Sequence record: SRR20825006_430
DNA length: 34,113 nt
Strand: one strand, 5' to 3'
Shown here piece by piece: positions 1,767 through 21,033 of this stretch. The position numbers and the translations under genes were made by a program. The notes below the pieces were generated by a model, which saw only the letters and a list, made by a program, of their open reading frames with translations, was not told the origin of the DNA and searched no databases. Position 1 is the stretch's first letter. The number at the start of each line of letters is the position of its first letter.

Positions 1767-2110
1767 TGTTGATACGCTCCTGCTACTAAGGCCGGGTTCG
1801 GCTGGGCCGCTGGTTGCGGCAAGTTGATTGATTGTTGTGAGAGAATAAGATCGCGCAAAATATCGTCTGCGAGACCAATGCCGCCATTGCCGGCCATGTT
1901 TTTCGCATATTCTTCGCCCAGCATGCCGCGCCATGTTTCTTCAGCATAGCCGCCGCCAAACATGTCTTCTGTGTCTGAAGCTTTGGTCATTTCACTCATC
2001 AGCGTGTTGAGAAACACGCCTTCTAGTTCAACAGACTTTTCTTTCAAGGACGCGAATTGGGCGTCGGTCATATTGTGTGGTTTTTGAACTGGGTAATAAA
2101 CGTTCGGCAT
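1763..2110 (-). CDS. flgJ: FlgJ, rod-binding single-domain form with no muramidase domain
   Basis: Rod-binding motif ELEGVFLNTLMSEM...FGGGYAEETWRGMLGEEYAKNMAGNGGIGLAD, directly after flgI. Confidence 0.9.
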   Translation of the reverse strand: MPNVYYPVQKPHNMTDAQFASLKEKSVELEGVFLNTLMSEMTKASDTEDMFGGGYAEETWRGMLGEEYAKNMAGNGGIGLADDILRDLILSQQSINLPQPAAQPNPALVAGAYQQ

Positions 2111-3237
2111 TAGATCACCTCAATTTCAGCTTGCAGGGCGCCGGCAGCTTTGATGGCTTGTAAGATCGAGATCAAATCCCGTGGTGAAATGCCCAGCGCA
2201 TTCAGCCCATCAACGAGTTCTTGCAACGTGACCGTTTCATTCAATGTGGCGAGACTGCTGTCTACTTGATCGACCTGAATTTCTGTGCGCGGCACCACGA
2301 CGGTTTGGCCGTTGGTGAGTGGGTTTGGCTGATCTACTTGCGGGTCTTCGGTGATGGTGACGGTGAGATTTGATTGTGCGATGGCCACTGTTGAAACACG
2401 GACATTGCGCCCCATCACCACGATGCCGGAATTTTCATCAATCACAATTTTGGCAGGTAGGTCCGGGGTGATGACCAATTGTTCAATATCAGTAATCAGA
2501 TCGACAATATTGCCATTAAAGCCGCGGGGCAGGGTGAGGTTTACTGTGGCGTTGTCCAGCGGCACGGCTGTTGGCATGCCAATCAAATTGTTGATGGCGA
2601 GGGCAATACGACGCGCCGTTGTGAAATCTGGATTGCGCAAAGCCAGGCGCACAGCACGGCGAGCGCCGAGATCAAAATCAACTTCACGTTCGATCAGTGC
2701 GCCATCAGAAATCCGTCCGGTTGTGGGAACGCCGGAAATAACAGTTGCGCCATCACCTTCGGCTTGGAAGCCGTTGATCGCGATGGGGCCTTGCGCAATG
2801 GCGTAAACTTCGCCATCAGCGCCCATTAGTGGGGTGACCAGCAATGTGCCGCCCTGAAGGCTTTTTGCATCGCCCAAGGCGGAAACCGAAACGTCTAAGC
2901 GTGAACCTTGGGTGGAGAAGGCTGGTAAGTTAGCGGTGACCATAACGGCGGCAACGTTTGCTGTGCGCATATTGGTGCCGCGGGTGTTGACGCCCATGCG
3001 CTCCAACATGGCAGTTAGGCTTTGGCGGGTGAAGGGCGCATTGTTGAGCCCATCGCCCGTGCCGTTAAGGCCAACAACTAGGCCATAGCCAACCAATTGG
3101 TTTTCGCGCACGCCTTCAATATTGACAATATCTTTAATGCGAGCAGCTTGGGTTGGCGCACAGAGCAAAAGTAGCGCTAGCCCGATTGTTCCCCATTTTG
3201 TCGCGATTGCAAAAATTGCTTTCATCATTTTCCCCAT
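2110..3237 (-). CDS. flgI: Flagellar P-ring protein FlgI (start could be 3228)
   Basis: Signal peptide followed by RIKDIVNIEGVRENQLVGYGLVVGLNGTGD, and C-terminal DLISILQAIKAAGALQAEIEVI. Confidence 0.98.
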   Translation of the reverse strand: MGKMMKAIFAIATKWGTIGLALLLLCAPTQAARIKDIVNIEGVRENQLVGYGLVVGLNGTGDGLNNAPFTRQSLTAMLERMGVNTRGTNMRTANVAAVMVTANLPAFSTQGSRLDVSVSALGDAKSLQGGTLLVTPLMGADGEVYAIAQGPIAINGFQAEGDGATVISGVPTTGRISDGALIEREVDFDLGARRAVRLALRNPDFTTARRIALAINNLIGMPTAVPLDNATVNLTLPRGFNGNIVDLITDIEQLVITPDLPAKIVIDENSGIVVMGRNVRVSTVAIAQSNLTVTITEDPQVDQPNPLTNGQTVVVPRTEIQVDQVDSSLATLNETVTLQELVDGLNALGISPRDLISILQAIKAAGALQAEIEVI

Positions 3238-3477: not shown

Positions 3478-3888
3478 ATGCGCATTACAGACACCAACAG
3501 AACCAGCCGCACTGCGCCGAAAAAGGCCGCCAAAGGGCAGCCTGACGGGCAAAAATTTGCCGTGAGTGATGACAACACCACGCAGCAAGTGCGTCACCAT
3601 GCGTCTGTTGAAGATGTGGGCAGTGTTGATGCGCTGCTGGCATTGCAAAGTGTTGAAGATCCAGTGCTGGCCAAAAAGAAGAGCATTAAGCGGGGGCACC
3701 AGCTTTTAGATGGGTTGGAGCGCCTTAAAACTGACCTGTTGGTGGGGCGTGTGAGTGAAGCGCGGCTCAACAATATGCTCAAGATGCTGAAAAATGCGCC
3801 CAATGTTGATGATCCTGCCTTGCAAGAGGTGATCGACGACATTGAACTGCGTGTTCAAGTAGAACTGGCCAAACTTGATCGGCTCTAG
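3478..3888 (+). CDS. fliX: Flagellar assembly regulator FliX
   Basis: Motifs VDALLALQSVED...RGHQLLDGLERLKTDLL and IDDIELRVQVELAKL. It is divergent from flgI, as in Caulobacter. Confidence 0.92.
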   Translation: MRITDTNRTSRTAPKKAAKGQPDGQKFAVSDDNTTQQVRHHASVEDVGSVDALLALQSVEDPVLAKKKSIKRGHQLLDGLERLKTDLLVGRVSEARLNNMLKMLKNAPNVDDPALQEVIDDIELRVQVELAKLDRL

Positions 3889-6735: not shown

Positions 6736-7686
6736 ATGAGTATGGCTAACCTGTCGCAAAATCCAACCGCCAATCTTAACTCGTCCCCAAAGGTGACGTT
6801 TTGGCAGCAGTTTGACCTTGGCATGCTGGTGCTTTTGCTGATTGTTGGCTTTTTTATGGGGCTTACTGCCGTGTTGGGCAAAGTGGCGATCAATACCGGG
6901 TGGACACCATCAATTTATCTTGCCCACACCGCGCTGGGCGGTGGCTTGCTGTTGCTGATTATTACAAGATCTTTGGGGCAACGGGCGCAATTTAACCTGT
7001 CGGATTGGCGTTATAATTTTATCTCTGGCCTGTTTTTTGTGGTGCCAAACCTGATGTTTTTCTTTGCTGTCCGGCATGTGGGCGCAGGCTTTATTGCCTT
7101 TGCCACAGCGTTTGCGCCCGTGCTCACCTTTTTCATTGCTGTTGCAATTGGAGATGATCGCTTTTCGCTCGGCAAGATTTTAGGTGTCGGCATGGCGTTG
7201 ACTGGTGGAATTTTGTTGGCGCTGGGCAAATTGACCGACACGAGCATAGCGCCATTGTGGATTGTGATAAGCCTGTTTGGCCCCGTGTTCTTGGCATTCG
7301 GCAATATTTTCCGTTCGCGCTTTTGGCCAACTGGCGTTGCGCCGTTATTGTTGGCGCCATGGATGCTGATCACGGCCGGACTTTATAGCTATGGGTTTGC
7401 TTTTGTGACGGGTTCATGGTCGGCGGCGGATGTGTCCAGCGCTGGATATTTGGTGATGGGGGCACAGATTTTGTGCTTTGCGGCGGGCTTTGGCTTTTAC
7501 TTTGTGCTGCAAAAACGCGGTGGCCCGGTTTATCTGAGCCAAATTGGTCCGGTGATTGCCCTGGTTGGTGCGCTGTTGGCAGCGACTTTCCTGCAGGAGC
7601 AGCTGACGCTTTTGGTTTTGCTTGGCGGCGCGGCTGTGATCGCTGGGGTGGTGATTTTCAATGCTGCCAATTTTGGCAAGAAATAA
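6736..7686 (+). CDS. DMT/EamA-family transporter (about 10 TM)
   Basis: Two hydrophobic EamA-like halves, with APVLTFFIA...DRFSLGKILG and GGPVYLSQIG...FLQEQL motifs. Confidence 0.9.
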   Translation: MSMANLSQNPTANLNSSPKVTFWQQFDLGMLVLLLIVGFFMGLTAVLGKVAINTGWTPSIYLAHTALGGGLLLLIITRSLGQRAQFNLSDWRYNFISGLFFVVPNLMFFFAVRHVGAGFIAFATAFAPVLTFFIAVAIGDDRFSLGKILGVGMALTGGILLALGKLTDTSIAPLWIVISLFGPVFLAFGNIFRSRFWPTGVAPLLLAPWMLITAGLYSYGFAFVTGSWSAADVSSAGYLVMGAQILCFAAGFGFYFVLQKRGGPVYLSQIGPVIALVGALLAATFLQEQLTLLVLLGGAAVIAGVVIFNAANFGKK

Positions 7687-7696
7687 GCCGCGCCTT

Positions 7697-7794
7697 AAAA
7701 ACAAAAAGGGCGCGACCAAATTGGGGAAAGTCGCGCCCTTTGGGGAAGGGCTGACCGCAAATTGGGGAAAGCGATCAGCCGATTTAATGGTGCC
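7697..7794 (-). ncRNA. Candidate flgH 3'UTR structured RNA/sRNA: two hairpins with identical UUUCCCCAAUUU loops, ending in an intrinsic terminator
   Basis: Minus strand reads GGCUGAUCGC[UUUCCCCAAUUU]GCGGUCAGCC-CUUCCCCAAA-GGGCGCGAC[UUUCCCCAAUUU]GGUCGCGCCC-UUUUUGUUUUU. The G.U wobbles and the U-tract work only on the minus strand. Confidence 0.55.
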
Positions 7795-8529
7795 TTAGAA
7801 GGGGAGAATGGCGTCCATAAATTGCTGGCCATAGCGTGGCTGCTGCACATCGGTGATTTGACCGCGGCCGCCATATGAGATGCGGGCCTGTGCAATTTTT
7901 TCGGAAGGAATGGTGTTGTTGGCTCCGATGTCTTCTGGGCGAACCACGCCAGCGATGATCAAGTCGCGTACTTCGAAATTCACCCGAACTTCCTGACGAC
8001 CTTCGATGACCAAGTTGCCGTTTGGCAAAACCTGCACCACCACTGCGGCCACTGATGTGTCCAAAGTTTCTGAGCGGTTTACGGAGCCGTCGCCTGTGTC
8101 AGCAGAGCCAGAGCTCAACTCGATTGCGCCATTGGCAGAAACGTCTGGCACCACTGAGTTGAAGATGGAGCCAACCACGCCGCCTGCGCCTGCATCATTT
8201 GTGCTGGTGCGTGAGCGAGATGTTTTGTTGGCGATTTGGGCTTTGTCTGCAATGGTAACGTCCACGGTGAGGATGTCGCCCACTTTGCTGGCACGTTGAT
8301 CTTTGAAAAAGCCGCGCTTGCCAGAGATGAACAATGAGTTTGGCTGGTAGGCCACTTTCTCAGGTTCTGGCATAGGCATAGACACTGGCTTGTAGCCTGC
8401 TTTCGCCTGCGGGTTTTCAATGGCGGTCAATGATGGTGCCTTGCCGATATTTGCAATTCGATTGGCCGTTGTACAGGCGGTGAGTGATGCGCCTAGTGCG
8501 ATCAAAGTGATGATTTGAAGCAGTTTCAT
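7795..8529 (-). CDS. flgH: Flagellar L-ring lipoprotein FlgH
   Basis: Lipobox LTAC, FFKDQRASKVGDILTV, VLPNGNLVIEGRQEVRVN and ARISYGGRGQITDVQQPRYGQQ. Confidence 0.98.
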   Translation of the reverse strand: MKLLQIITLIALGASLTACTTANRIANIGKAPSLTAIENPQAKAGYKPVSMPMPEPEKVAYQPNSLFISGKRGFFKDQRASKVGDILTVDVTIADKAQIANKTSRSRTSTNDAGAGGVVGSIFNSVVPDVSANGAIELSSGSADTGDGSVNRSETLDTSVAAVVVQVLPNGNLVIEGRQEVRVNFEVRDLIIAGVVRPEDIGANNTIPSEKIAQARISYGGRGQITDVQQPRYGQQFMDAILPF

Positions 8530-8540
8530 TTTGGTTGCTC

Positions 8541-9497
8541 CTAGTTAACTGTCGCGACTTTGGCGGGACCATTTGAAATGGTCACAGCGCCGGCGCCAGT
8601 GACGATGCCCTGAATTGGTTTGTTGGACATCAGATTGAGAACGGTGACAGGCTCGTTAAGGGCTGCTGATTGCATGGCCTTTGCCTTCACAGTGAGGGTG
8701 AGTGCGCCTTTTTGGAAATAAAGGGTCACAAGTTCGTTGCGACTAATCAGATCTGGCTCGGTCACATCAGCGACACGAAGTGGGCTGCCGCCACGCAGGG
8801 CGCGGGTTAGGCTTTTGCCCACCAGTTCTTCAATGTGCAGAACGCCTTGTGAGCGCACCAATTGTTCAGAAGCTGGGCGCATTTCAATATCGCTCAACTG
8901 CAGGATTTCGCCTTTGCCCTTGGTTTGGGTCAAGAATGGTGCTTCGACCATAATGTCGATCCGGCCATTCAATTGCAGCGGCTGGCTGTGACCAGCCAAG
9001 GCCAAGCGGGCGGCGAATGTGCGGGTGTTTGGACCAACTTCAAAGTCCAGCACCATCACAGGATTGTCTGATGCACTGTCTGCAAAGATGGTGTTGAGCG
9101 CAGCATTCAACCGCAATTGAGCTGTTTCACCCTCCAGCAGCAATTCACGCGCCATCAATTCTTCATTGACGAGCTGGTTGATGTAGCCCGCGTCAACTTT
9201 AACGCCTGCGCGTTCAACCCGAACTTGGGAAAGACCTGCAGTGTCGTAATTGGCAAAGCCTGCCCGCTGCGCGGCCAAGTGAATGGAGGTGAGGGGCACA
9301 GCGCCAACCGTGCCAGGCGCTGGGCTACGGAACAAAGGCGTTTCAGCATGCACGCCAGCATTGTTGAACATGTCGCCCACGGTGACCACTTTTGTATCCA
9401 CCAACACCGAAGGCTTAAGCACTGGCATGGCCAAAGCGCTTTGCGCCATAAGTGCGGCGGTGAGGGCCAGAACAGATTTGCTAAGAGATTTGAACAT
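8541..9497 (-). CDS. flgA: P-ring formation chaperone FlgA
   Basis: Signal peptide, SAF-like region and C-terminal LTLTVKAKAMQSAALNEPVTVLNLMSNK, located between flgG and flgH. Confidence 0.9.
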   Translation of the reverse strand: MFKSLSKSVLALTAALMAQSALAMPVLKPSVLVDTKVVTVGDMFNNAGVHAETPLFRSPAPGTVGAVPLTSIHLAAQRAGFANYDTAGLSQVRVERAGVKVDAGYINQLVNEELMARELLLEGETAQLRLNAALNTIFADSASDNPVMVLDFEVGPNTRTFAARLALAGHSQPLQLNGRIDIMVEAPFLTQTKGKGEILQLSDIEMRPASEQLVRSQGVLHIEELVGKSLTRALRGGSPLRVADVTEPDLISRNELVTLYFQKGALTLTVKAKAMQSAALNEPVTVLNLMSNKPIQGIVTGAGAVTISNGPAKVATVN

Positions 9498-9512
9498 GAT
9501 CTCAACCTACCC

Positions 9513-10298
9513 CTAGCGGATCTGCGATGTGGCTTGCAGCATTTGGTCGGCACCCGAAATTACACGCGCATTCATTTCATATGCGCGCTGGGCGGCGATC
9601 AAATCAGCAATTTCAGTCACAGCGTTTACGTTGGCCAGTTCCAAGTGCTTTTGCAGCATGTTGCCAAAGCCATCTTGGTTGGCGACGCCGTTTTGCGCAG
9701 GGCCAGAGGCGGCGGTTTCAACATAGGTGTTGTCCCCGATGCTTTCCAAACCCGCTTTGTTGGCAAAGCGGCTCAATTGGATTTGACCCAAGGTAGTTGG
9801 AGCTGACTCATTGTCCAAAAAGGCTTGGACCGTGCCGTCAGCTGAGATTGAAACGGCGCGGGAGTTGGCCGGAATGTTGATGCCTGGCTGAACCAAATAA
9901 CCTTCGATGGTGACCATCTGGCCGTTTGAGTCCCGTTCGAAGGAACCATCACGCGTGTAACCTGTACGGCCATCTGGTAGGGTTACCGAGAAGAAGCCTT
10001 CACCACGAATGGCGATGTCCAACTCTTTTTCAGTTGGCTGAATGTTACCTTGGCTCATGATCCGCGGTGTGGCGCCGGTTTTAACACCAGAACCGATTTC
10101 AACGCCTGTTGGCAATTGAGTGCCAGCGGCAGAGGTTTGCGAACCTGCGCGGCGATAAACCTGATATAGCAAATCCTGGAAGTCAGCCCGCTGGCGCTTA
10201 TAGCCAGTGGTGCGCATGTTGGCGATGTTGTTGGAGATCACTTCAACGTTCCGCTCTTGCGCTGACATGCCTGTGGAAGCGATATAGAGTGCCTTCAT
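9513..10298 (-). CDS. flgG: Distal rod protein FlgG
   Basis: MKALYIASTGMSAQERNVEVISNNIANMRTTGYKRQRADFQDLLYQ, YTRDGSF and LIAAQRAYEMN. Confidence 0.98.
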   Translation of the reverse strand: MKALYIASTGMSAQERNVEVISNNIANMRTTGYKRQRADFQDLLYQVYRRAGSQTSAAGTQLPTGVEIGSGVKTGATPRIMSQGNIQPTEKELDIAIRGEGFFSVTLPDGRTGYTRDGSFERDSNGQMVTIEGYLVQPGINIPANSRAVSISADGTVQAFLDNESAPTTLGQIQLSRFANKAGLESIGDNTYVETAASGPAQNGVANQDGFGNMLQKHLELANVNAVTEIADLIAAQRAYEMNARVISGADQMLQATSQIR

Positions 10299-10321
10299 TA
10301 TTCTGTTCCTTTCGCTTTCAC

Positions 10322-11059
10322 TTAAGCTCTTGTGTCGCCAAGTTTTTGAATGGCGGAGCGCCGCAATTCATCTTGACGCTGTTGGAGACTGGCAATGGAT
10401 TCATATGCCTTGGTTACGCGGATCATTTCAGTCATTTCAGAAACGCCAGAAACGTTAGACCGCTCAATGGCCATATGGACCAACCGGGATGGGTTGTCGA
10501 AAATTGGATTTTCGCCAGAAAACATGGTGTCGCCTTCGCGGCGCAGGCTTTGTGGATCATCAAATTCTGCGACCCGCAAAATGCCTTTGTCGCCAGCGGA
10601 AGAGGTTACCCGGCCATCTTCGGTGATGGCGATGCCTGTTTCTTCCGGGCCGAAGGTTACGAAGCCACCATCGGCCAGCACATTGTAGCCTTCTGAGGTG
10701 ACCAGCTGACCAAGCTCATTAAGCTGGAATGAACCATTGCGGGTGTAGCGCTCGCCGCCAGGCGTATCGATAACAAAGAACCCGTCGCCTTGAATGGCCA
10801 CGTCCAATGGGTTGCCTGTTTGCGTGATGCTGCCGGAGGCAAAATCGTGAATGGTGGCCCAATCCTGCGTGTAAGAAAGCGGCTGGTCCATCATCTCAAA
10901 ATCTTTATGACGGGCGACCGGCATGACATATTCTTCGAAAAGAATGTCCATATTTTTGTAACCGGCTGTATTCATATTGGCCATATTGTTGGCCACAACG
11001 TCCATTTGACGTTGCAGGGCAATTTGCCTTGATAAGCCGATGAGCTGTGCGTTTTCCAT
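10322..11059 (-). CDS. flgF: Proximal rod protein FlgF
   Basis: MENAQLIGLSRQIALQRQMDVVANNMANMNTAGYK, TGNPLDVAIQGDGFF and ERSNVSGVSEM. Confidence 0.97.
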   Translation of the reverse strand: MENAQLIGLSRQIALQRQMDVVANNMANMNTAGYKNMDILFEEYVMPVARHKDFEMMDQPLSYTQDWATIHDFASGSITQTGNPLDVAIQGDGFFVIDTPGGERYTRNGSFQLNELGQLVTSEGYNVLADGGFVTFGPEETGIAITEDGRVTSSAGDKGILRVAEFDDPQSLRREGDTMFSGENPIFDNPSRLVHMAIERSNVSGVSEMTEMIRVTKAYESIASLQQRQDELRRSAIQKLGDTRA

Positions 11060-11128
11060 GGCACCTGTCTCCCCAATTTAACATTTGGCCGTTTAACTTC
11101 CCCAAGCTAGCGGGCCTGCCAAATACAA

Positions 11129-11163
11129 TGCGAAGATCGTGCCAGTTTTCTAACTTATTGATT
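11129..11163 (-). promoter_or_regulatory. sigma54 promoter of flgFGAH with an IHF site
   Basis: TGGCAC-GATCT-TCGCA (11129-11144). AATCAA-TAAG-TTA (11151-11163) is a perfect WATCAANNNNTTR. Confidence 0.85.
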
Positions 11164-11218
11164 TATATGGATTTTGATTAAAATTTTCATCAAATGGGCA
11201 AGTGAGTGTTTGCTGGGT

Positions 11219-11245
11219 GGCAAAAATTACCGGGCAAAAATTGCC
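11219..11245. promoter_or_regulatory. Tandem ftr-like (FlbD) enhancer sites
   Basis: GGCA-AAAAT-TACC (11219-11231) and GGCA-AAAAT-TGCC (11233-11245), 75-100 bp upstream of the flgF sigma54 promoter. Confidence 0.75.
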
Positions 11246-11259
11246 GCAAAATGCAAAAA

Positions 11260-11275
11260 GTAACTCTTCGTTAAC
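11260..11275 (+). promoter_or_regulatory. CtrA box of the fliL operon
   Basis: GTAA-CTCTTCG-TTAAC, with a GANTC at 11326-11330 downstream. Confidence 0.75.
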
Positions 11276-11350
11276 CTTCTCGCCCTTACCTCTGTATATA
11301 TAGGCAATGTGGGCGCATCGCCTATGATTCTTGGATAATTGAGGTTTGGC

Positions 11351-11842
11351 ATGGCCAACGAAGACGCAAATGTCGACCCCGAAGCCGGGGAAGAAGGCGA
11401 AGGCAAAAAGAAACTGCCCTTAATGGTAATTATTGGCGCTGCTGTTGTTTTGTTGGCGGCGGCAGGTGGTGCAGCCTATTTCTTTTTATTTGCAGGTGGC
11501 GATAGCGAGAAGCCCGAACTTCAAGATGTACGTGAAGCGGTGTTTTACGATTTGCCCACAATCACTGTGAATTTGAGTGATGATGCTGACAATGATGAAG
11601 TGTTTTTGAAGCTCGCCATTGCGCTTGAGCTTTCTGATGAGGCGCTGATTGAAATTGTGGAACCGCGTATGCCGCGGGTGTTGGACACATTTCAGGTTTA
11701 TTTGCGCGAATTGCGCCGCTCAGACCTTGAAGGGTCTGAAGGGATTTATCGATTGAAGGAAGAGTTGCGCCGTCGGGTGAATTTGGCGGTGTTCCCCGCG
11801 CAAGTGGACAGCATTTTGTTTAAAGAAATTCTGGTTCAATAA
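11351..11842 (+). CDS. fliL: Flagellar basal body-associated protein FliL
   Basis: KKK followed by a single TM segment, then FYDLPTITVNL, FLKLAIALEL, PRVLDTFQVYLREL and ILFKEILVQ. Confidence 0.95.
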   Translation: MANEDANVDPEAGEEGEGKKKLPLMVIIGAAVVLLAAAGGAAYFFLFAGGDSEKPELQDVREAVFYDLPTITVNLSDDADNDEVFLKLAIALELSDEALIEIVEPRMPRVLDTFQVYLRELRRSDLEGSEGIYRLKEELRRRVNLAVFPAQVDSILFKEILVQ

Positions 11843-11851
11843 GGTTACGTC

Positions 11852-12982
11852 ATGGCTGATGAAAACGACGATCTGATGAGCGCCCTGGACGAAGAACAGT
11901 CCAAAAATGATGACGATATGGCATCAGAATGGGCTGCGATGATCGAAGGGGGCGGCGACGGTGATGGGGATTCCCACGCTGACCGTATCCTCAATCAGGA
12001 CGAAATCGACAATCTTTTAGGCTTTGATCAGGCGGATCTGAGCGAAGGCGATATGTCTGGGGTGCAAGCGTTGATCAATTCGGCGCTCGTATCTTATGAA
12101 CGTTTGCCTATGTTGGAGATTGTGTTCGACCGCTTAGTGCGGTTGACCACAACTTCACTGCGCAACTTTACGTCTGATAACGTAGAAGTCTCGCTGGATA
12201 GCATCACTTCCGTGCGCTTTGGCGACTATTTGAACTCTGTGCCTTTGCCAGCAATTTTGACTGTGCTGAAGGCGGAAGAGTGGGACAATTTTGGTTTGAT
12301 GACGGTTGAAAGTAACCTCATTTATTCCATGATTGATGTGCTGTTGGGCGGCCGCCGTGGCAATAACACTATTCGGGTTGAAGGGCGTCCTTATACCACC
12401 ATCGAGATGGGACTGACCCAGCGCATGATCGAGTTGATCCTCGATGATATGATGAAGGCCTTTGAGCCGCTGACGCCAGTGACCTTTAAAGTTGAGCGCA
12501 TGGAGACCAATCCGCGCTTTGCTGCGATTGCCCGGCCTGCCAATGCCGCCATTTTGATTGAGTTGCGCATCGATATGGATGATCGCGGCGGCAAAGTTGA
12601 AATTTTGCTGCCTTATGCAACCATCGAGCCGATCCGTGAGCAATTGCTGCAAATGTTCATGGGTGAAAAATTTGGCCGTGACCCGATTTGGGAAGGCCAT
12701 TTGGCATCTGAGATTTTTGCGGCGGAAACTGAGTTGGAAGCGGTGTTGCATGAGTGGGAAATTCCATTGTCCCACGCCATGAACATTTCAGCGGGTGACA
12801 CGCTGATGTTTGAACGCACACCAAATGATCCGGTTTCGCTGCGTTGTGGCAATGTGACCTTAACCGAAGCGCAAATGGGCCATATTGGCAAAAATGTATC
12901 GGTACGCGTAACCCGTCCGCTGAACCCGCCAAAAGTGACAATGTCGGTGTTTGAAGCAATGGACGAGCAGGGGAGAGACTAA
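11852..12982 (+). CDS. fliM: Motor switch protein FliM
   Basis: CheY-binding ILNQDEIDNLL, SYERLPMLEIVFDRLVR and a C-terminal SpoA domain. Confidence 0.97.
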   Translation: MADENDDLMSALDEEQSKNDDDMASEWAAMIEGGGDGDGDSHADRILNQDEIDNLLGFDQADLSEGDMSGVQALINSALVSYERLPMLEIVFDRLVRLTTTSLRNFTSDNVEVSLDSITSVRFGDYLNSVPLPAILTVLKAEEWDNFGLMTVESNLIYSMIDVLLGGRRGNNTIRVEGRPYTTIEMGLTQRMIELILDDMMKAFEPLTPVTFKVERMETNPRFAAIARPANAAILIELRIDMDDRGGKVEILLPYATIEPIREQLLQMFMGEKFGRDPIWEGHLASEIFAAETELEAVLHEWEIPLSHAMNISAGDTLMFERTPNDPVSLRCGNVTLTEAQMGHIGKNVSVRVTRPLNPPKVTMSVFEAMDEQGRD

Positions 12983-12983
12983 A

Positions 12984-13454
12984 ATGGCTTTTGGTTTGAT
13001 TGTTGAAGGGGCGGTTGCCATTTTGTTGGTGCTGACCATTGGCTATTGCTATGTGCTGAATGTGCGCTTGAAGCGGCTACATGCTGACCGCGATGCCCTG
13101 CGGGCCATGATCACCGATTTGGTGCGTGCCACTGATATGGCCAATGGGGCCATTCAGGGCTTGAAGCGCACTGCTGCAGAAACTGACGCCCAATTGCGCA
13201 GCCGTATGCAAGAAGCGGAAGGCTTTTCCACTCAGATGGGTCAGCAAGTGCAAGACGGACAAGATTTGCTGTTCAAAATCAGCCAGATTGCGAAAACTGC
13301 ACGTGATGCGGAAGCGCAGCGCGGTGGCGTGCCATTGCCACCACAATCAGCACCTGCGCCACATGTTCCGGTTGGCGAACGCCCTATGCCAAAGGCGCGT
13401 AACGCTTTGTCACAATTGGATAAATATACCCGCTCTAAAGGGGAGGCGGCATGA
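12984..13454 (+). CDS. DUF6468-like bitopic membrane/coiled-coil protein (positional equivalent of Caulobacter PflI)
   Basis: N-terminal TM (VAILLVLTIGYCYVLN.RLKRL), coiled coil and Pro-rich tail, located between fliM and motE. Confidence 0.75.
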   Translation: MAFGLIVEGAVAILLVLTIGYCYVLNVRLKRLHADRDALRAMITDLVRATDMANGAIQGLKRTAAETDAQLRSRMQEAEGFSTQMGQQVQDGQDLLFKISQIAKTARDAEAQRGGVPLPPQSAPAPHVPVGERPMPKARNALSQLDKYTRSKGEAA

Positions 13455-14224
13455 ATTCAATCCGCTTGCTGCCAGTGGTTATGGTTGCCGCTGGTGCGTT
13501 GTTTCTGTTCAAGTTTCTCGGCATTGTTTCTGGCGAAGGCTACAGCCTGAGCGGGGCACAAATGGTGAGCGCGCAAGAAGCGCCTGAACAGCCACAAGAT
13601 GCGCAAGTGCAAGAGGATATGACCCAAGATTCGACGGGGAACAGCTTGGCAGATGATGCCCAGATGAGCCCGGAAGAATTGGCCGCACAGGAAGAGAAGC
13701 CGCAAGACGCAGCGCCGATCATGATCAAGAAAGATGGTGACATTGTTTCTTGGGAAGATGCAGACGGGCTTGCGGATACGGAACGCGCCATTTTGGCTAG
13801 GCTGAGTGAGCGGCGCAAAGAGCTTGATGCGCTGGAAGCGCAATTGAAAGTGCAAGAAGATATTGTGCGAGCAGCGGAAAAGCGGCTGGAAACACGGGCA
13901 GCCGAACTGAAAGAGATCGAAGCCCGCATTCAACAGCTTGTTGATCGCAAAGAAGGGCTGGAGGATGAGCAATTTGGCTCGCTCGTCTCCATGTATGAAA
14001 ATATGAAGCCCAATGATGCGGCGCGGATTTTCGACCGGCTGGATATGCTTGTGCTGGTGCGCATGGTAGAGCGCATGAACCCACGCAAAATGGCGTCAAT
14101 TTTGGCGGCAATGGATGCGGAAAAGGCAGAGGCCCTGACGATCAATCTCGCCAACCCGAATTTGCAGCAGATGGAAACTGTGCCTGCACAGGACGATGCT
14201 CTGCCTCAAATTGTGGGCCAATAG
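13451..14224 (+). CDS. motE: MotE-family periplasmic motility protein
   Basis: IRLLPVV N-terminal anchor, coiled coil ERAILARLSERRKELD, and MYENMKPNDAARIFDRL...MNPRKMASILAAM. Confidence 0.85.
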   Translation: MNSIRLLPVVMVAAGALFLFKFLGIVSGEGYSLSGAQMVSAQEAPEQPQDAQVQEDMTQDSTGNSLADDAQMSPEELAAQEEKPQDAAPIMIKKDGDIVSWEDADGLADTERAILARLSERRKELDALEAQLKVQEDIVRAAEKRLETRAAELKEIEARIQQLVDRKEGLEDEQFGSLVSMYENMKPNDAARIFDRLDMLVLVRMVERMNPRKMASILAAMDAEKAEALTINLANPNLQQMETVPAQDDALPQIVGQ

Positions 14225-14313
14225 CCCGCTTTCCGGCGTGTGGTAAGTAAAGTGTTAATCGCTAGACGCTAGATTGATCTGAACGATTGATCGTAAAGAG
14301 GCCCATCCCGCAA

Positions 14314-17300
14314 ATGGTGTTGTTTAAAGCCATGCAAAAAGCGTTGTGCCAAGCGTTGGTTGCGTCCACGCTTGCAGGCGGGATTGCTGCATCCATTTTA
14401 CCGCCAGCGGCGATGGCGCAAAATCAGCAAGAATCCCAGCGTTTAGAAGTGGTTGCGCAAGGCCAGCCAGGCTACGGCCGGATTATCTTGAAATTTGTCG
14501 ATCGGCTTAATTTACCCTCCTACTCCATTTCTACCAATGGCGGGGTGATGAGCATTGAGTTTTCTCAACCGATCAATGTGCAATTGCCGGACGTGACCGA
14601 GCAGTTGGGCGACTATGTTGCTGTGGCACGGGTGGACCCGGACTTTAAAGGCATTCGCTTCGGCTTAAAGCAGGATTACCGCATCAACCGTATCGAAGCG
14701 GGTGAGCGGCTGTTTATCGACTTTATTCCGCGTGATTGGCAGGGGTTGGACCCCTCATTACCTGAAGATGTGGTGGCGGAACTGGCCCTGCGGGCAGAGC
14801 AAGCGGCAAAGCTGGCAGAGCAGCGCCGCAAGGAGCGGATTGCGCGGGAAACCAAGCCAAGCGCCATTTTGCGTGTTGGTCGGCACCCGACATTTACACG
14901 CGTGAAATTTGAATGGACCATCGACACTGAGGGCAGTTGGGAACGCACTGCTGAAGGCGGGGTGTTGAAATTCGAATGGCCTGTGGATGTTGATCTTTAT
15001 CCCATTCAATCGGAATTGCCGGAAGAAATTGAAAGCGTTGAAAAAGAGATCACGCGCGACGGGCTACAGGTGAGCTTTAAGCTAACCGACAAGGTTGAGC
15101 CGCGCTTTTTCAAAGAAAATAACCGCAACTATACGTTGGATTTGGACTTTTCGACCCGTGAAGATGTGGGCGTGCCCATTACCGACATTGCGCCGGAACA
15201 AGTTGCAGAAGAGATTGCAGACAATGAGCGTGTGACGACGACGCAGGACGAGATTGACCCGCTATTGCGGAAAACGCCAACCTTGTCGCGCCAAACTCGC
15301 ATTACGCCATTTGTGAACAAAATTGGCGGCACTGTTCGGCTGATTTTCCCATTTGAGCAAGATACGCCTGCCGCTGTGTTTAAGCGCGGTGACACGGTTT
15401 GGATGGTGTTCGACACCCACGTGGCGATCGACCCACCTGCGGACACGGATTTGCTTGGTGGCATCACGCAAGACATCAAAGTCGATACGGCCGGGGAAAC
15501 CCAAATTGTTCAAATGACCATGAATGCGGATCGGTTGGCGACTTTGGGGTCAGAAGGGCGTTCATGGGTTTTGTCGCTGGGCGATATATTGATTGCGCCC
15601 ACCGAGCCAATGTCGCTTACCCAGCAACGCCAAAGTGATGGGCGCACCGTGTTGGTGGCTGACTTGCTGCGACCTGGGCGGGTGCACCAATTGCGCGATC
15701 CAAATGTTGGTGATTTGTTGCAAGTTGTGACGGCTTATCCACCTTCACGGGCGATTGTTCGCGACTTGGAATATGTAGATTTCAAAGCGCTGCGTGCGGT
15801 GCATGGTTTGGTGATCAAGCCTTATCACTCTGAAGTGATTTTGCAGATTGAAGGCTCGGAAGTGGTGATCGATGCGGAGGAAAAACTGATGTTGTCTTCC
15901 GCCACAGATGTGAACCGCGAAGTGCTTGTGGATGCTGGTGACCGCATTGGCTATATCGACCTGAGCGCGCTCGAGACTGTTCGTCCAGATAATTTCATTG
16001 AAAAGCGTGAAGAAATTCAGGTGCGGGCTGCGGAAGCAGAGGGCAATGCGAAAGAGAGTGCGCGGGTTGAGTTGGCCAGATATTATCTGGCCAATCGTTT
16101 GACCCATGAAGCCTTGGGCGTGCTGCGGGTTTGGGAAAAAGACACCAAACGTCCGCAGTTGTTGGAAGAAGGCAAGATGGTGCAGGCCGCCGCAAATGTG
16201 CTGGCAGGGCGCCATGATGATGCGCTGGAAATTTTGCTGGAAGACGAGTTTGTCGACGAGCCAGATGCGGTGATGTGGCGGACCATTGCACGGGCCAACC
16301 GCGGCGAATATGATATTGCCCGCAACGATGCGTTGCTGGCTGAGCAGGCGGTTGAAGCCTATCCGACTTGGATTGCCAATGAGTTTTACTTTGCGGCAGC
16401 ACGGTCTGCCGTTGAAATGGGTGATTCCGCAGCGGCAATCCGCTATTTGGGCGGTATTGATTTCAGTTCGCTCGATAAAGAAAATCTAAGCCGCTATGAC
16501 TTGCTGGCTGGGCGTGTGGACGAGGTGGACCAACGCTATGCTGACGCGCTGGAGACTTATGGTTCAGTGCTGAATATGGATATTCGGCCCACCTATGCCG
16601 AGGCGGTTTATCGCACATTGTTGGTGCTGGAAAAGCAAGGCAATATTGATTTGGACAAAGCGGTGCAGACGCTGTCCATTCAATCGCTGACATGGCGTGG
16701 TGGCGAGCTTGGCGCGAATATTCAAGAGCTTTATGGCCGCTTGCAATTCAAAAACCATGATTATCGTGGCGGGTTTGAAACGCTTGAGCGGATGCAGGTG
16801 GTGCATCAGGATACGCCACAAGAGACGCGGCATTTTGAGCTGTCTAAGCAGATTTTTGAAGATCTGTTTTTGAATGGCGAAGCTGATCGGCTTGAGCCTG
16901 TGCGGGCGCTTGGCCTTTATTATGACTTCCGTAAATTGACGCCTGCGGGCGCCAAAGGCGATGAAATGATCCGTAATTTGGCGCGGCGTTTGGTGCGGGT
17001 TGATCTTTTGGATCAGGCGGCGGAGTTGCTGGATTATCAGATTGATAATCGCTTGGAAGGCGTAGCGCGCGCGAAGATTGCGGCGGACCTTGCGGTGATC
17101 CATATTGCCAATCGGCGCGCGGACTTGGCGCTAAAAGCGCTTTATAAAACCCGTTTGGCCAATTTGGTGCCGCAGTTGGAGCGGCAGCGTCGGATTTTGG
17201 AAGCTAAGGCTTTGATCGATGCGGGCCGCGATGAGCTGGCGGTTGATATTTTGCGCAATATTGAAGGGTTTGACGCCCGGTTGCTAGAGGTTGATGCCCA

Positions 17301-17670
17301 TTGGGCAGGTCGCCGCTATCGCGAAGCGGGTGAGTTGATTGAGCGTATTTATGCTGACCAGTACACGGATGCGGGGTCATTGCCGACAAGTGTGCGCAAT
17401 GATTTGGTGAAGGCAGCTGTGGCCTATACGCTGGGCAATGATGAGATTGGACTGACACGGTTGCGGGCAAAGTTCTCCGGTCGCATGTCGTCCACGCCAG
17501 AGTGGCCAGTGTTTGAATTCGTGACCAGCAAAACCGCGTTTGGCACGAAGGAGTTTAAAGCATTGGCAAAAGAGATTGCAGATGTGGATTCGCTCAACTC
17601 ATTCCTTGCGGCGTATAAAGAGCGCTATGGCACGGAAGGCGCGTTGGCGCCGGATCAGGATGTGCTTTAA
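14314..17670 (+). CDS. Large periplasmic TPR protein with repeated N-terminal beta-domains (MotK/PflA-like motor accessory protein, inferred)
   Basis: Signal peptide ending AMA-Q, three similar beta-rich units, and a helical TPR-like C-terminal half (ARVELARYYLAN..., IRNLARRLVRVDLLDQAAELL). It follows motE. The start is uncertain (14287/14314/14332). Confidence 0.8.
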   Translation: MVLFKAMQKALCQALVASTLAGGIAASILPPAAMAQNQQESQRLEVVAQGQPGYGRIILKFVDRLNLPSYSISTNGGVMSIEFSQPINVQLPDVTEQLGDYVAVARVDPDFKGIRFGLKQDYRINRIEAGERLFIDFIPRDWQGLDPSLPEDVVAELALRAEQAAKLAEQRRKERIARETKPSAILRVGRHPTFTRVKFEWTIDTEGSWERTAEGGVLKFEWPVDVDLYPIQSELPEEIESVEKEITRDGLQVSFKLTDKVEPRFFKENNRNYTLDLDFSTREDVGVPITDIAPEQVAEEIADNERVTTTQDEIDPLLRKTPTLSRQTRITPFVNKIGGTVRLIFPFEQDTPAAVFKRGDTVWMVFDTHVAIDPPADTDLLGGITQDIKVDTAGETQIVQMTMNADRLATLGSEGRSWVLSLGDILIAPTEPMSLTQQRQSDGRTVLVADLLRPGRVHQLRDPNVGDLLQVVTAYPPSRAIVRDLEYVDFKALRAVHGLVIKPYHSEVILQIEGSEVVIDAEEKLMLSSATDVNREVLVDAGDRIGYIDLSALETVRPDNFIEKREEIQVRAAEAEGNAKESARVELARYYLANRLTHEALGVLRVWEKDTKRPQLLEEGKMVQAAANVLAGRHDDALEILLEDEFVDEPDAVMWRTIARANRGEYDIARNDALLAEQAVEAYPTWIANEFYFAAARSAVEMGDSAAAIRYLGGIDFSSLDKENLSRYDLLAGRVDEVDQRYADALETYGSVLNMDIRPTYAEAVYRTLLVLEKQGNIDLDKAVQTLSIQSLTWRGGELGANIQELYGRLQFKNHDYRGGFETLERMQVVHQDTPQETRHFELSKQIFEDLFLNGEADRLEPVRALGLYYDFRKLTPAGAKGDEMIRNLARRLVRVDLLDQAAELLDYQIDNRLEGVARAKIAADLAVIHIANRRADLALKALYKTRLANLVPQLERQRRILEAKALIDAGRDELAVDILRNIEGFDARLLEVDAHWAGRRYREAGELIERIYADQYTDAGSLPTSVRNDLVKAAVAYTLGNDEIGLTRLRAKFSGRMSSTPEWPVFEFVTSKTAFGTKEFKALAKEIADVDSLNSFLAAYKERYGTEGALAPDQDVL

Positions 17671-18509
17671 CCGAGATAACTTCGGATCAGTGAGCCTGCG
17701 ACCAGATTCCAGCCATCGACGAGCACGAAGAAAATCAGCTTAAACGGCAATGAGATCACGATAGGCGGCAGCATCATCATACCCATGGACATGAGCACCG
17801 AGGCGACCACCATGTCGATGACGATGAAGGGCACAAACAGCAAAAAGCCAATTTCAAATGCCCGACGCAATTCAGAAATCATGAAGGCTGGCACCAAAAT
17901 AGTGATGTCCAGTTCCTCGGGATTTTCTGGGATCGGCGTTTCCGTTAGGTCCAGAAACAGCTGTACATCTTTATCCCGCACATGCGCGCGCATAAATTCG
18001 TGCAATGGCGCCATGGCCTCTGGCAGCGCTTCTTCCAGCAACAAATCGCCAGCAACCAAAGGCGCGATGCCCTGATCGTAAGATTGTTGCAGGGTGGGGG
18101 CCATCACAAAGGCCGTGAGGAACAAGGCCAGCGAAATCATCACGGAGTTCGGCGGTGCCGTTTGCAGGCCGATGGCGGTACGCAGCAAAGACAAGACAAC
18201 GACAATGCGGGTGAATGAGGTGACCATCACCAGAATAGACGGGGCCAAGGACAGGATCGTGATGATCCCGATCAGTTGTACCGCGCGTTCAGTGAGCGTT
18301 GTTTGGTCTTCAAAGTCGATTGAAATGTCTTGGGCAAAGCTGGGGAACACAAACAAGGCCCCCAGCATCAAAATAACAAAGCAGAAGCTGAACGATTTTG
18401 CGCTAAACCAAGCGAAGGATTTAAGACGTTCAGCCGTAAATAATTGCGCTGGCGGTGTGCCAGCCAGCGCAGGGCGCAATTTAGTCTTGCTTGGCTTTGT
18501 CTTTTCCAT
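17667..18509 (-). CDS. fliP: Flagellar export gate protein FliP (start uncertain)
   Basis: LSLAPSILVMVTSFTRIVVVLSLLRTAIG, PAFMISELRRAFEIGF and LPFKLIFFVLVDGW. Confidence 0.97.
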   Translation of the reverse strand: MEKTKPSKTKLRPALAGTPPAQLFTAERLKSFAWFSAKSFSFCFVILMLGALFVFPSFAQDISIDFEDQTTLTERAVQLIGIITILSLAPSILVMVTSFTRIVVVLSLLRTAIGLQTAPPNSVMISLALFLTAFVMAPTLQQSYDQGIAPLVAGDLLLEEALPEAMAPLHEFMRAHVRDKDVQLFLDLTETPIPENPEELDITILVPAFMISELRRAFEIGFLLFVPFIVIDMVVASVLMSMGMMMLPPIVISLPFKLIFFVLVDGWNLVAGSLIRSYLG

Positions 18510-19257
18510 GTTCAGACGCTGAATCGGCTCCTTCATGCTCGCTTTTCGGAGCATCTTCATTCGCCAATTTAACTGAGTCGGCATTTGCGTCTTGGTTTTT
18601 GTTGTCTGAAACCAGGCTATCCACGTCTTTTTGCTTGTTGCCGCTCCGCAAAAGGCCGGGATATTTCAGCGTGTTTGTGCCTGCACTCGGGTTTGATTTG
18701 GCCAGCTCTTGCAGCTTTTCAATCGGGGCGAGGTTTGGCATTGGCGTCACGTTGCCGCCTTTGTTTTCGCTTGGCGGGTTAACCTGCGGTTCCATCCGAT
18801 CTTCCAGCGGGGAAACGGGTGTGGTGCGCGACGGGCCGCTGGGGCGCGGTTTAGCAACGATAGGGGCAGCTGGTTTTAGGCTCTCTTTTGGCTCCAATTG
18901 CGCCTTCATGGATTCACTTTCAGGCATTTCGGTTTTGGCTGCAGCTGGGCGTTGATCAACTTCATTAGGATTTTGAAAACCGCTTTCAATCACCACATCA
19001 TTTGGGCCGCCTATCATCACCAGATGTTCAACATCGTCGCGGCGCACGATCACCAATTGGCGCTTATTGTCTACCGGCGCAGATTGCAGCACGGCCAGGC
19101 GGCGCAATTTGCTGCGGCTGCCATCGCGGCTGGCGCGGAAGCCAATTTTGATCAGCCACACCACCAAAATGATGGCCAGAATTGTGATGAAAAGACCGCC
19201 AATAACAATGGCAATATTGCCCAAATCTTCACCCAAAAGTTCAGTTAAAAAACCCAT
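18481..19257 (-). CDS. fliO: FliO with a long low-complexity C-terminal tail
   Basis: TM segment followed by the FliO motif RLAVLQSAPVDNKRQLVIVRRDDVEHLVMIGGPNDVVIE. Confidence 0.9.
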   Translation of the reverse strand: MGFLTELLGEDLGNIAIVIGGLFITILAIILVVWLIKIGFRASRDGSRSKLRRLAVLQSAPVDNKRQLVIVRRDDVEHLVMIGGPNDVVIESGFQNPNEVDQRPAAAKTEMPESESMKAQLEPKESLKPAAPIVAKPRPSGPSRTTPVSPLEDRMEPQVNPPSENKGGNVTPMPNLAPIEKLQELAKSNPSAGTNTLKYPGLLRSGNKQKDVDSLVSDNKNQDANADSVKLANEDAPKSEHEGADSASEHGKDKAKQD

Positions 19258-19351: not shown

Positions 19352-19479
19352 GGCAAAAACTGCCTAGTGCAAGCCTACATTCGGCGAATGACACATTTTG
19401 GCACGCTGATTGATGGCATTTATTGAAAATTGCAAAGATTATTAACGCAACGTTAACCATTTGCCCGGCAATATCTGCC
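19352..19479. promoter_or_regulatory. fliO/flgB divergent control region: a perfect CtrA box flanked by two ftr-like sites
   Basis: TTAA-CGCAACG-TTAAC (19442-19457), GGCA-AAAAC-TGCC (19352-19364) and GGCA-ATATC-TGCC (19467-19479). Confidence 0.8.
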
Positions 19480-19500: not shown

Positions 19501-19905
19501 ATGTCGATTGCAAAGTTGCCTTTATTTGATGCGTTGACGCAGAAAATGAAGTGGCACCAAACGCGGCAAACATTGTTAGCAGAGAACATCGCCAACGCTG
19601 ATACACCAGATTATCGCGGGCGTGACCTGAAAAAGTTCGATTTTGCACAGCATCAGGCTGATTTGAAGATGACCAGCGTGTCGACGCGGGTGACGAATGT
19701 GAATCACTTTTCAGTGGTGGGGCAAGGCGCAGACGGATTCGGCGCGCGGCAAATGAACAATTTTGAAATTACGCCAGAAGGCAATGGTGTGGTGCTGGAA
19801 GATGAAATGATGAAAGTCTCCAGCAACCAGATGGACTATCAAGCGGCGACCGCCGTCTACAAACGCTCTTTGCGGTTGATCAGAACCGCATTGGGCAAGC
19901 AGTAA
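19501..19905 (+). CDS. flgB: Rod protein FlgB
   Basis: RQTLLAENIANADTPDYRGRDL and PEGNGVVLEDEMMK. Confidence 0.97.
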   Translation: MSIAKLPLFDALTQKMKWHQTRQTLLAENIANADTPDYRGRDLKKFDFAQHQADLKMTSVSTRVTNVNHFSVVGQGADGFGARQMNNFEITPEGNGVVLEDEMMKVSSNQMDYQAATAVYKRSLRLIRTALGKQ

Positions 19906-19921
19906 TTTGACGAGGTGAGTG

Positions 19922-20338
19922 ATGTCTTCTGATTTTATGAATTCGCTGAAAATTGCCGCAACTGGGCTGCACGCGCAGTCTGCGCGGATGCGGATTATCG
20001 CTGAAAACATGGCCAACTCCAGCTCAGCAGCGAAAGAGCCGGGGGCAGACCCATATCGGCGCAAAGTGCCAACATTTGAGGCGGTTTATAATAATGAATT
20101 GATGGCCAATGAAGTGAAGATTGGCCGCGTGGCTTATGACCAAAGTGATTTTCAATCACGCTATGAGCCTGGGCACCCGGCAGCGGATGATCGTGGCTAT
20201 GTGCTGTATCCAAATGTGAATAGCCTGGTGGAAACCATGGATATGCGGGAAGCCCAGCGCACATATGAAGCGAACTTGAATGTGGTGACCGTGACCCGGC
20301 AAATGCTGGGCGGCACATTGGACATTCTTCGCGGATAG
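19922..20338 (+). CDS. flgC: Rod protein FlgC
   Basis: IAATGLHAQSARMRIIAENMAN, YEPGHPAAD..GYV.YPNVN and AQRTYEANL. Confidence 0.97.
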   Translation: MSSDFMNSLKIAATGLHAQSARMRIIAENMANSSSAAKEPGADPYRRKVPTFEAVYNNELMANEVKIGRVAYDQSDFQSRYEPGHPAADDRGYVLYPNVNSLVETMDMREAQRTYEANLNVVTVTRQMLGGTLDILRG

Positions 20339-20408
20339 GGGAAGGGCTGAGCGGCGCAAAATTGGGGAATGGCGCGCCGCGATAGCCAACTAAAATTGGG
20401 GAATTTTT

Positions 20409-20729
20409 ATGAGCGTACCATTTGCAGCAGCGTCTAACGCTTATGCCAGTGCAGCCCAATTGGGCAACACGGGCCAGCAAAGTGCCCAACTGGCACCAAA
20501 AACACATGAGGGTCCAAACTTTGGCGAAATGCTGACGCAAAGCCTGACCGATGTGGTGGAAACAGGGCGTGTGGCCGACCAAAAGGCCATGGATCTTGTG
20601 AATGGCGAGTCAAACGTGGTTGATGTGGTGACCGCGATCTCCGAAACTGAAATTGCTATGGAAACAGTGGTGACGATTCGTGACCGGGTGATCACTGCTT
20701 ATGAATCAATCATGCAAATGCCAATCTAA
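20409..20729 (+). CDS. fliE: Hook-basal body protein FliE
   Basis: VVDVVTAISETEIAMETVVTIRDRVITAYESIMQMPI. Confidence 0.95.
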   Translation: MSVPFAAASNAYASAAQLGNTGQQSAQLAPKTHEGPNFGEMLTQSLTDVVETGRVADQKAMDLVNGESNVVDVVTAISETEIAMETVVTIRDRVITAYESIMQMPI

Positions 20730-20762
20730 GCTTGCTTAGGTGGCATGATTTAGGAGGCGTTG

Positions 20763-21029
20763 TTGACCGGCGCGCAAGTTCTAGACGTTGCACAAGACGG
20801 CATTTGGACGTTGATCTATGTATCGGCGCCACTGATGATTGTTGGCCTTGTGGTGGGCGTTGTGATTGCGCTGTTTCAGGCTTTGACGCAAATCCAAGAG
20901 ATGACGTTGGTGTTTGTGCCAAAAATCTTGGCGATCTTTATCACCATGCTGCTGCTGCTGCCGTTTATGGGCGCGCAAATGGCAGGCTATATGGATCGGG
21001 TGGTTGATTTGATCATCACTGGCGGTTAG
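20763..21029 (+). CDS. fliQ: Export protein FliQ (TTG start)
   Basis: FQALTQIQEMTLVFVPKI, with a GGAGG RBS at 20753-20757. Confidence 0.96.
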   Translation: MTGAQVLDVAQDGIWTLIYVSAPLMIVGLVVGVVIALFQALTQIQEMTLVFVPKILAIFITMLLLLPFMGAQMAGYMDRVVDLIITGG

Positions 21030-21033
21030 CGCC

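Follow-up and report, generated by a model that had tools for sequence, protein, structure and literature searches.

The flagellar operon flgF-flgG-flgA-flgH (positions 7795–11059, minus strand; Pfam matches for all four genes) ends in the gene for the L-ring protein (flgH, 7795–8529, minus strand; Pfam FlgH, E 2e-56), and the 98 nt that separate its stop codon (TAA, 7797–7795) from the vicinity of the convergent EamA-family gene (6736–7686, plus strand) raise the question of whether they simply end a transcript or constitute an RNA with a function of its own. The window, i.e. the whole stretch of 34,113 nt analysed here, is a flagellar gene cluster that also comprises flgI (2110–3237, minus strand), fliX (3478–3888, plus), fliL and fliM (11339–12982, plus), fliP (17667–18584, minus) and flgB-flgC-fliE-fliQ-fliR-flhB (19501–22892, plus), besides a 1127-aa ORF without Pfam match (14287–17670, plus). 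Its host genus is probably Maritalea (Devosiaceae, Hyphomicrobiales); the nearest genome (G001, 3.5 Mb), which shares 56% of sampled 31-mers with the window, was used for whole-genome searches. Three sequencing runs are on record as RNA, and four runs were compared with the window; their contigs reach up to 14,088 nt and span genes of both strands, and, being assembled, they carry no information on ends, strand or levels.

On the minus strand, the flgH stop codon is followed by an AU-rich single-stranded spacer of 14 nt (GGCACCAUUAAAUC, 7794–7781), which is variable in the genus-wide alignment and represents a possible processing site. Hairpin 1 (7749–7780) comes next, with a stem of 10 bp, one of them U.G, formed by the arms GGCUGAUCGC (7780–7771) and GCGGUCAGCC (7758–7749), and a 12-nt loop, UUUCCCCAAUUU (7770–7759). 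The linker CUUCCCCAAA (7748–7739) leads on to hairpin 2 (7705–7741), whose GC-rich 12-bp stem includes an AAA/UUU extension and whose arms GGGCGCGAC (7738–7730) and GUCGCGCCC (7716–7708) enclose the 13-nt loop UUUCCCCAAUUUG (7729–7717, seed at 7718–7729); a U-tract, UUUUUGUUUUU (7707–7697), completes the element. In sequence and fold, this arrangement matches the original prediction in every detail, down to two differing stems that present an identical 12-mer. The 34-kb window holds exactly two copies of the latter, and allowing one mismatch yields five matches as compared to 0.42 expected (0 of 100 shuffles reached five). The linker provides a third C-rich site, and UUCCCCAA is present three times inside the element.

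The minus-strand fold reaches –44.8 kcal/mol (z = –5.8), a value that none of 200 shuffles equalled. Hairpin 2, a GC-rich 12-bp stem followed by UUUUUGUUUUU on the transcribed strand, is a predicted intrinsic terminator; it was absent from a simple consensus terminator scan because its loop measures 13 nt and that scan accepts loops of 3–8 nt only. A crude scan for sigma70 promoters between positions 7500 and 8300 returned no sites, and hence no sign of a separate promoter for the element. Like a 3′UTR-derived base-pairing sRNA, the element follows the stop codon in the orientation of the mRNA, shares the terminator of the flgFGAH mRNA and has a single-stranded seed that is conserved and complements target sites which are conserved as well. 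Its U-tract might serve as an Hfq-binding site, and Hfq was found in both of the two genus genomes searched.

In all nine same-genus genomes the DNA match continues through the element, and outside the genus it ends where flgH ends. In the 10-sequence alignment of the genus, neither loop varies, nor does the C-run of the linker; the stem sequences differ between two clades. For a stem test, 21 pairs were specified and scored over the 10 genus sequences, with partners slid by 1–3 columns as a control: 97.6% of cells were paired, as opposed to 28–54% with slid partners, and seven of the 21 pairs showed compensatory changes (0 of 500 shuffles reached the observed values). Hairpin 1 contributed compensatory changes in three of its nine tested stem pairs and one-sided wobble changes in another count of three of nine; in hairpin 2, all twelve pairs were paired throughout (100%), four of them with compensatory changes. 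RNAalifold independently recovered the same two helices. The expectation that the loops are retained in orthologous flgH tails while the stems covary is therefore borne out by ten genomes.

The one-sided stem changes are U.G or G.U wobbles, which would be mismatches on the opposite strand, and the flgH strand is thus the structured one. Indeed, the minus-strand orientation that had been deduced from G.U pairs and the U-tract holds up, since the former fit that strand only and the plus-strand fold, with a mismatched hairpin 1, attains a z of –2.9 compared to –5.8.

A covariance model built from the genus alignment returned one match per genome in seven of seven genus genomes and matched 24 of 61 genomes of the family. 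Where matches outside the genus were compared with the position of flgH, those in G010, G012, G014 and G022 all fell just 3′ of the gene; the match in G013 was weak (E 0.005) and located away from flgH. The gene downstream of flgH varies among relatives and the element stays with flgH. Its exact 11-mer TTCCCCAATTT has five copies in the 3.5-Mb G001 genome, four of which are inside the flagellar cluster. Given the single model match in each of seven genus genomes and the five 11-mer copies in G001, a dispersed REP-like repeat, against which the original prediction had staked its case, can be excluded. The fifth 11-mer copy (C2:729597), inside or beside ORFs and without hairpin or start codon, was put down to chance. 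The element had not been recognised as belonging to a described family, and Rfam 15 concurs, with no match at the gathering score in the window and, in a relaxed scan of positions 7500–8000, a best hit of 17.9 bits (E 1.8) to an unrelated family. Judged by sequence and predicted fold, the flgFGAH transcript ends in a structured RNA that is conserved, single-copy and strand-specific, and that is probably an undescribed regulatory RNA.

That transcript had been assigned to sigma54, and a promoter of the type TGGCAC-N5-TCGCA is indeed found ahead of flgF (TGGCAC-GATCT-TCGCA, 11129–11144, minus strand), conserved across relatives; flgI is preceded by a promoter of the same type (3300–3285, minus strand). 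The leaders behind these promoters harbor complements of the seeds. In flgF, the upstream motif CUUGGGGAAG (11097–11106, minus strand), which resides in a small hairpin with a GGGG loop and is conserved family-wide, complements the linker over 9 nt, and the Shine-Dalgarno region AAAUUGGGGAGA (11079–11068), ahead of the ATG at 11059–11057, allows 12 pairs with the loops, one of them G.U. In flgI, the leader motif GAUUGGGGAAU (3262–3252, minus strand) is accompanied by AUGGGGAAAA (3237–3228), ahead of the likely start codons. A third site is the flgC-fliE spacer (20336–20411, plus strand), which comprises GGGGAAGGGCUGA (20338–20350), complementary to the hairpin 1 3′ arm plus linker (UCAGCCCUUCCCC), a hairpin with the loop AAAAUUGGGGAAU (20358–20370) and the fliE Shine-Dalgarno sequence AAAAUUGGGGAAUUUUUAUG (20392–20411). 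Both flgF and fliE have the loop complement AAAUUGGGGA as their Shine-Dalgarno region, and each of the three predicted targets has a second G-rich motif upstream, namely CUUGGGGAAG for flgF, AAAAUUGGGGAAU for fliE and GAUUGGGGAAU for flgI. The leaders of flgB and fliL are of class II type, carry TTAA-N7-TTAAC boxes and are free of GGGG motifs.

These boxes, located at 19442–19457 upstream of flgB and at 11251–11267 upstream of fliL, are kept across the fetched loci, and we take them to be CtrA-type. The flgF-fliL intergenic region further contains overlapping near-palindromes at 11217–11246 (GGCAAAAATTACC and GGCAAAAATTGCC) that presumably resemble Caulobacter FlbD (ftr) enhancer sites; similar CCGGCAA-N-TGCCGG elements are found upstream of fliL and flgB in relatives.

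Genome-wide, such complements are scarce in a ribosome-binding context. AATTGGGGAR has 13 sites in G001, two of which are the antisense of the element itself and three the flgF and fliE sites; none of the remaining eight has a start codon of an ORF of at least 50 codons within 3–15 nt, so that only the flgF and fliE sites qualify. A sigma54 promoter followed by TGGGGA within 8–38 nt occurs twice in this genome (flgF and flgI) and never in a reversed control. Among the 32 start regions of the window, the best seed duplexes were formed, in this order, by flgI, orf257, flgF and fliE. Orf257, an unnamed ORF of 257 aa in the flagellar cluster (13451–14224, plus strand) with only a weak MgtE_N match and the ribosome-binding site AAAGGGGAGG, takes second place among the 32 for pairing with the linker seed. 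Duplexes with the whole element were calculated at –54.1 kcal/mol for flgF, –58.9 kcal/mol for flgI and –70.2 kcal/mol for the fliE spacer (z from –2.5 to –3.9; for each, 0 of 200 shuffled targets as good), compared to –27.6 to –34.7 kcal/mol for six control leaders of the same cluster (z from –1.2 to +0.9); as the cost of unfolding is left out of these and of the seed-duplex energies, only the contrast between targets and controls counts. To some extent, the complementarity is also generic, since any Shine-Dalgarno-like motif would match C-rich seeds. Of the predicted targets, the flgC-fliE spacer is the strongest.

The reading that we favour, and hold with moderate confidence, is that the flgFGAH 3′UTR carries a multi-seed anti-Shine-Dalgarno RNA that base-pairs with basal-body mRNAs. 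The sigma54-dependent transcript would end in a structured regulatory RNA made up of the 98 nt after flgH, with hairpin 2 and the U-tract ending transcription. The identical 12-nt C-rich loops on the two hairpins and the third C-rich site in the linker would act as anti-Shine-Dalgarno seeds for G-rich motifs (UUGGGGAA/G), two each in the flgF leader, the flgI leader and the flgC-fliE spacer; in each target, a small hairpin loop would present one motif and the ribosome-binding site the other. Such pairing would most likely block ribosome entry and might possibly trigger cleavage; its effect would be repression. Upon completion of the class III rod/ring operon, feedback would act on flgF and flgI, and fliE, in a different operon, would be turned down. 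The RNA would accumulate either as a processed 3′ fragment or within the full mRNA, presumably with the assistance of Hfq. Of the original prediction that basal-body mRNAs are the targets, the complementarity of the loops to leaders or ribosome-binding sites of flgF, flgI and fliE has stood; the feedback itself is what we infer.

A look beyond the genus brings another possibility into view. Our comparison covered 19 syntenic and 80 named loci (the latter from a FlgH profile search), and runs of C and G were counted over 97 distinct loci. The 150 nt after flgH contain 269 runs of at least four C as compared to 37 G-runs across these loci, with C-runs outnumbering G-runs in 81 of 97, the reverse in two and equality in 14, and the 82 nt before flgF display the opposite bias (162 G-runs vs. 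nine C-runs; more G- than C-runs in 81 of 95 loci). A C-rich tail and a G-rich leader in the same operon, together with the finding that the two flgF motifs could pair with two seeds simultaneously, would suit a mechanism confined to cis, in which the tail pairs with the leader of its own mRNA, joins the ends and sets flgF translation or mRNA stability, with neither a free sRNA nor targets in trans. Such pairing is possible for flgF but cannot explain flgI and fliE, which are on separate transcripts: flgI has its own promoter, and fliE, in another operon on the other strand and 12.6 kb away, has the longest complement of all, one that co-varies with the element. We therefore regard a purely cis-acting tail as unlikely.

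The co-variation concerns two clades within the genus. In clade A, the tail segment UCAGCCCUUCCCC (hairpin 1 3′ arm plus linker) and the spacer sequence GGGGAAGGGCUGA form a 13-nt perfect complement, which takes in the 3′ arm of hairpin 1 that would have to open for pairing; in clade B, CGAUUGGCUCUCC and GGAGAGCCAAUCG, respectively, take their places. In an eight-by-eight comparison of this segment, perfect complements measured 9–13 nt within a clade and 6–8 nt across clades; the contrast represents a single phylogenetic split, though one that involves several nucleotides. Likewise, linker and flgI motif match each other in clade B (CUCCCCAG and CUGGGGAG), the clade A pair being UUCCCCAA and UUGGGGAA, and two positions have therefore changed on both partners. 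The G039 tail has three CUCCCCAAG sites; facing them in the flgF leader are CUGGGGAG, UUGGGGAG and CUUGGGGAG. The stem of the fliE-spacer hairpin changes independently of hairpin 2 in the tail, which disfavours simple gene conversion between two DNA repeats.

Other comparisons of this kind are less informative. The sequences that flank the leader motifs (CUU..AAG, GCU..AGC) are themselves complementary and fold into a local hairpin, so that part of their variation needs no distant partner, and a tally of UU/CU against AA/AG combinations largely sets one clade against the rest. In an all-against-all test of 96 loci, cognate combinations had a longest complement of 7.29 nt on average as compared to 6.31 nt for non-cognate ones, which include close relatives; as the excess is small and confounded by relatedness, this test was not relied on. 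What looks like a further matched change comes from the sequences of L063 (G014), whose fliE-spacer hairpin loop, UUGGGGGAC, has five G and whose flgH-tail loops, UUCCCCCAA, have five C.

Invariant 12-nt loops would suit a protein as well, e.g. a factor binding C-rich RNA, with another recognising the G-rich leader loops and complementarity arising as a by-product; a pair of motifs divided between a hairpin loop and the Shine-Dalgarno sequence is moreover the usual layout for dimeric translational repressors. However, CsrA was not found in two of two genus genomes (98–100% complete), and binding sites for proteins would not predict the co-variation of stem arm plus linker with the fliE spacer or of the linker with the flgI motif, making this explanation improbable in our view. 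We consider it just as improbable that the element does no more than terminate and protect the flgFGAH mRNA without regulatory pairing. Hairpin 2 and the U-tract make a textbook intrinsic terminator, and upstream hairpins are able to block 3′ exonucleases, but neither role needs identical 12-nt loops that stay fixed while the stems change, an additional copy in the linker, or a set of complements confined almost entirely to three flagellar ribosome-binding regions. Finally, a plus-strand sponge of the Csr/Rsm type with GGGGAA loops, or a REP-like or mobile DNA repeat, would account for the GGA-containing loops that show on the plus strand and for the related sequence at 20336–20404, but can be dismissed as highly improbable on the grounds that CsrA was found in neither of the two genomes (98–100% complete), that the structure favours the C-rich strand, with wobbles turning into mismatches and no U-tract following on the plus strand, and that the element is single-copy and remains with flgH while the downstream gene varies.

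The composition of the flgH tails follows a pattern that extends across the order. Most Devosiaceae have two to four hairpins with UCCCC-type loops, the last being a GC-rich terminator, and CUCCCC motifs are present in the tails of Bosea, Methylobacterium, Beijerinckiaceae, Roseibium/Stappia, Pleomorphomonas and Cohaesibacter. In Bradyrhizobiaceae/Xanthobacteraceae, an invariant GAGCUCCCAC precedes two hairpins, with AGCUCCCCU as the terminator loop; compensatory changes affect 12 of the 24 predicted pairs (14 sequences). The Parvibaculaceae, Rhodobiaceae and Azospirillum loci among those compared possess plain terminators or no C-rich tail.

Two further observations concern these tails. The Bradyrhizobiaceae/Xanthobacteraceae version of the tail (L105, L122, L140, L146 and other loci), located ~10–110 nt past the flgH stop codon, also includes a covarying hairpin with the conserved loop GAACCUAGG. 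In four Parvibaculaceae/Rhodobiaceae loci (L104, L113, L115 and L118), plain terminators follow flgH and the flgF leader contains GGGAAACGGGAGCGAAAGCUUCC, in which GGGAGC is able to pair locally with GCUUCC; this local pairing may substitute for a distant C-rich partner.

At the other end of the operon, the flg-Rhizobiales motif (RF01736) matched directly upstream of flgF in four of 12 loci scanned (58–125 bits), i.e. in two Bradyrhizobium, one Rhodopseudomonas and one Xanthobacteraceae locus. In its consensus, two hairpin loops contain GGGAG, and GGGGAGA forms the Shine-Dalgarno sequence. The flgF leader of the window scores 22.2 bits (E 0.013) against this model, below the gathering score of 55; hairpin 1 and the Shine-Dalgarno sequence align, hairpin 2 is missing, and the location upstream of flgF fits. 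The motif is listed in a table as a candidate cis-regulatory RNA of Rhizobiales (PMC2864571), and neither a function nor a partner is stated in the literature searched, which for this motif consists of that 2010 table row and a methods paper. It could plausibly partner with the C-rich flgH tail, although in Bradyrhizobium perfect complements between tail and leader are only 6–8 nt long.

As a tentative extension, which we put forward as possible rather than probable, the two ends of the flgFGAH operon would form a matched RNA pair across Hyphomicrobiales. The G-rich loops of the flgF leader, and with them flg-Rhizobiales, would have their missing counterpart in the C-rich flgH-tail loops, and finished rod/ring transcription would gate translation of flgF and flgI (and, in the genus, of fliE), adding an RNA-only checkpoint atop the FlbD/FliX hierarchy. 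The order-wide pattern, the kinship of the flgF leader with flg-Rhizobiales and the flgC-fliE spacer as a target were not part of the original prediction.

To our knowledge, post-transcriptional control of alphaproteobacterial class III (sigma54) flagellar genes is poorly understood. With its three seeds, its predicted targets and the compensatory changes that have arisen in nature, this conserved, single-copy tail RNA provides a directly testable model for such control and for the role of flg-Rhizobiales. No RNA after flgH in alphaproteobacteria is described in the openly accessible main texts searched; the sRNA lists of the Bradyrhizobium, Rhodopseudomonas or Methylosinus transcriptomes may contain it, perhaps under a different name. 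A study of transcription units in Methylosinus names a flagellar promoter motif and the sRNAs EcpR1 and alpha-r45, with nothing at flgH in the passages covered.

Several known systems share individual traits with the element. Staphylococcal sRNAs with UCCC loops (RsaE/RoxS) likewise present several C-rich loops to G-rich Shine-Dalgarno targets, but are independent genes with metabolic targets and are unrelated to the flgH tail in lineage and sequence. In E. coli, sigma28-dependent sRNAs are also UTR-derived, under flagellar sigma control and tune flagellar synthesis; they differ in their sigma factor (sigma54 here) and bear no likeness in sequence or structure, and two of them, MotR and FliX, pair inside coding sequences, as opposed to the leaders and ribosome-binding sites complemented by the element. 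Flg-Rhizobiales, a leader of flagellar basal-body operons, is the likely partner and not the element itself.

Among the nearest analogues is the alphaproteobacterial cuckoo family, characterised by two to four adjacent hairpins with variable stems and CCUCCUCCC in each loop (PMC4615179). The element resembles it in its two adjacent hairpins with covarying stems, the same C-rich motif in each loop and presumed anti-Shine-Dalgarno pairing. Its seed differs, as had been anticipated, with UUUCCCCAAUUU in the place of CCUCCUCCC, and, unlike cuckoo RNAs as portrayed there (PMC4615179), it is bound to the flgH 3′UTR, single-copy, equipped with an additional linker seed and predicted to act on flagellar targets. 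It would work like a multi-seed anti-Shine-Dalgarno sRNA, yet fits neither the cuckoo family nor any Rfam family.

Another analogue is CJnc230 (FlmE) of Campylobacter jejuni, which lies downstream of the RpoN-dependent flgE, is processed from its mRNA and represses flagellar regulatory mRNAs (PMC11187230). The element shares with it the position downstream of a flagellar structural gene with an RpoN-type promoter. Phylum, gene and sequence are different, and the targets reported for CJnc230 are flgM and Cj1387c (PMC11187230). The flgH tail would add, after Campylobacter, a second lineage in which a sigma54-driven flagellar structural operon may carry a regulatory RNA at its 3′ end.
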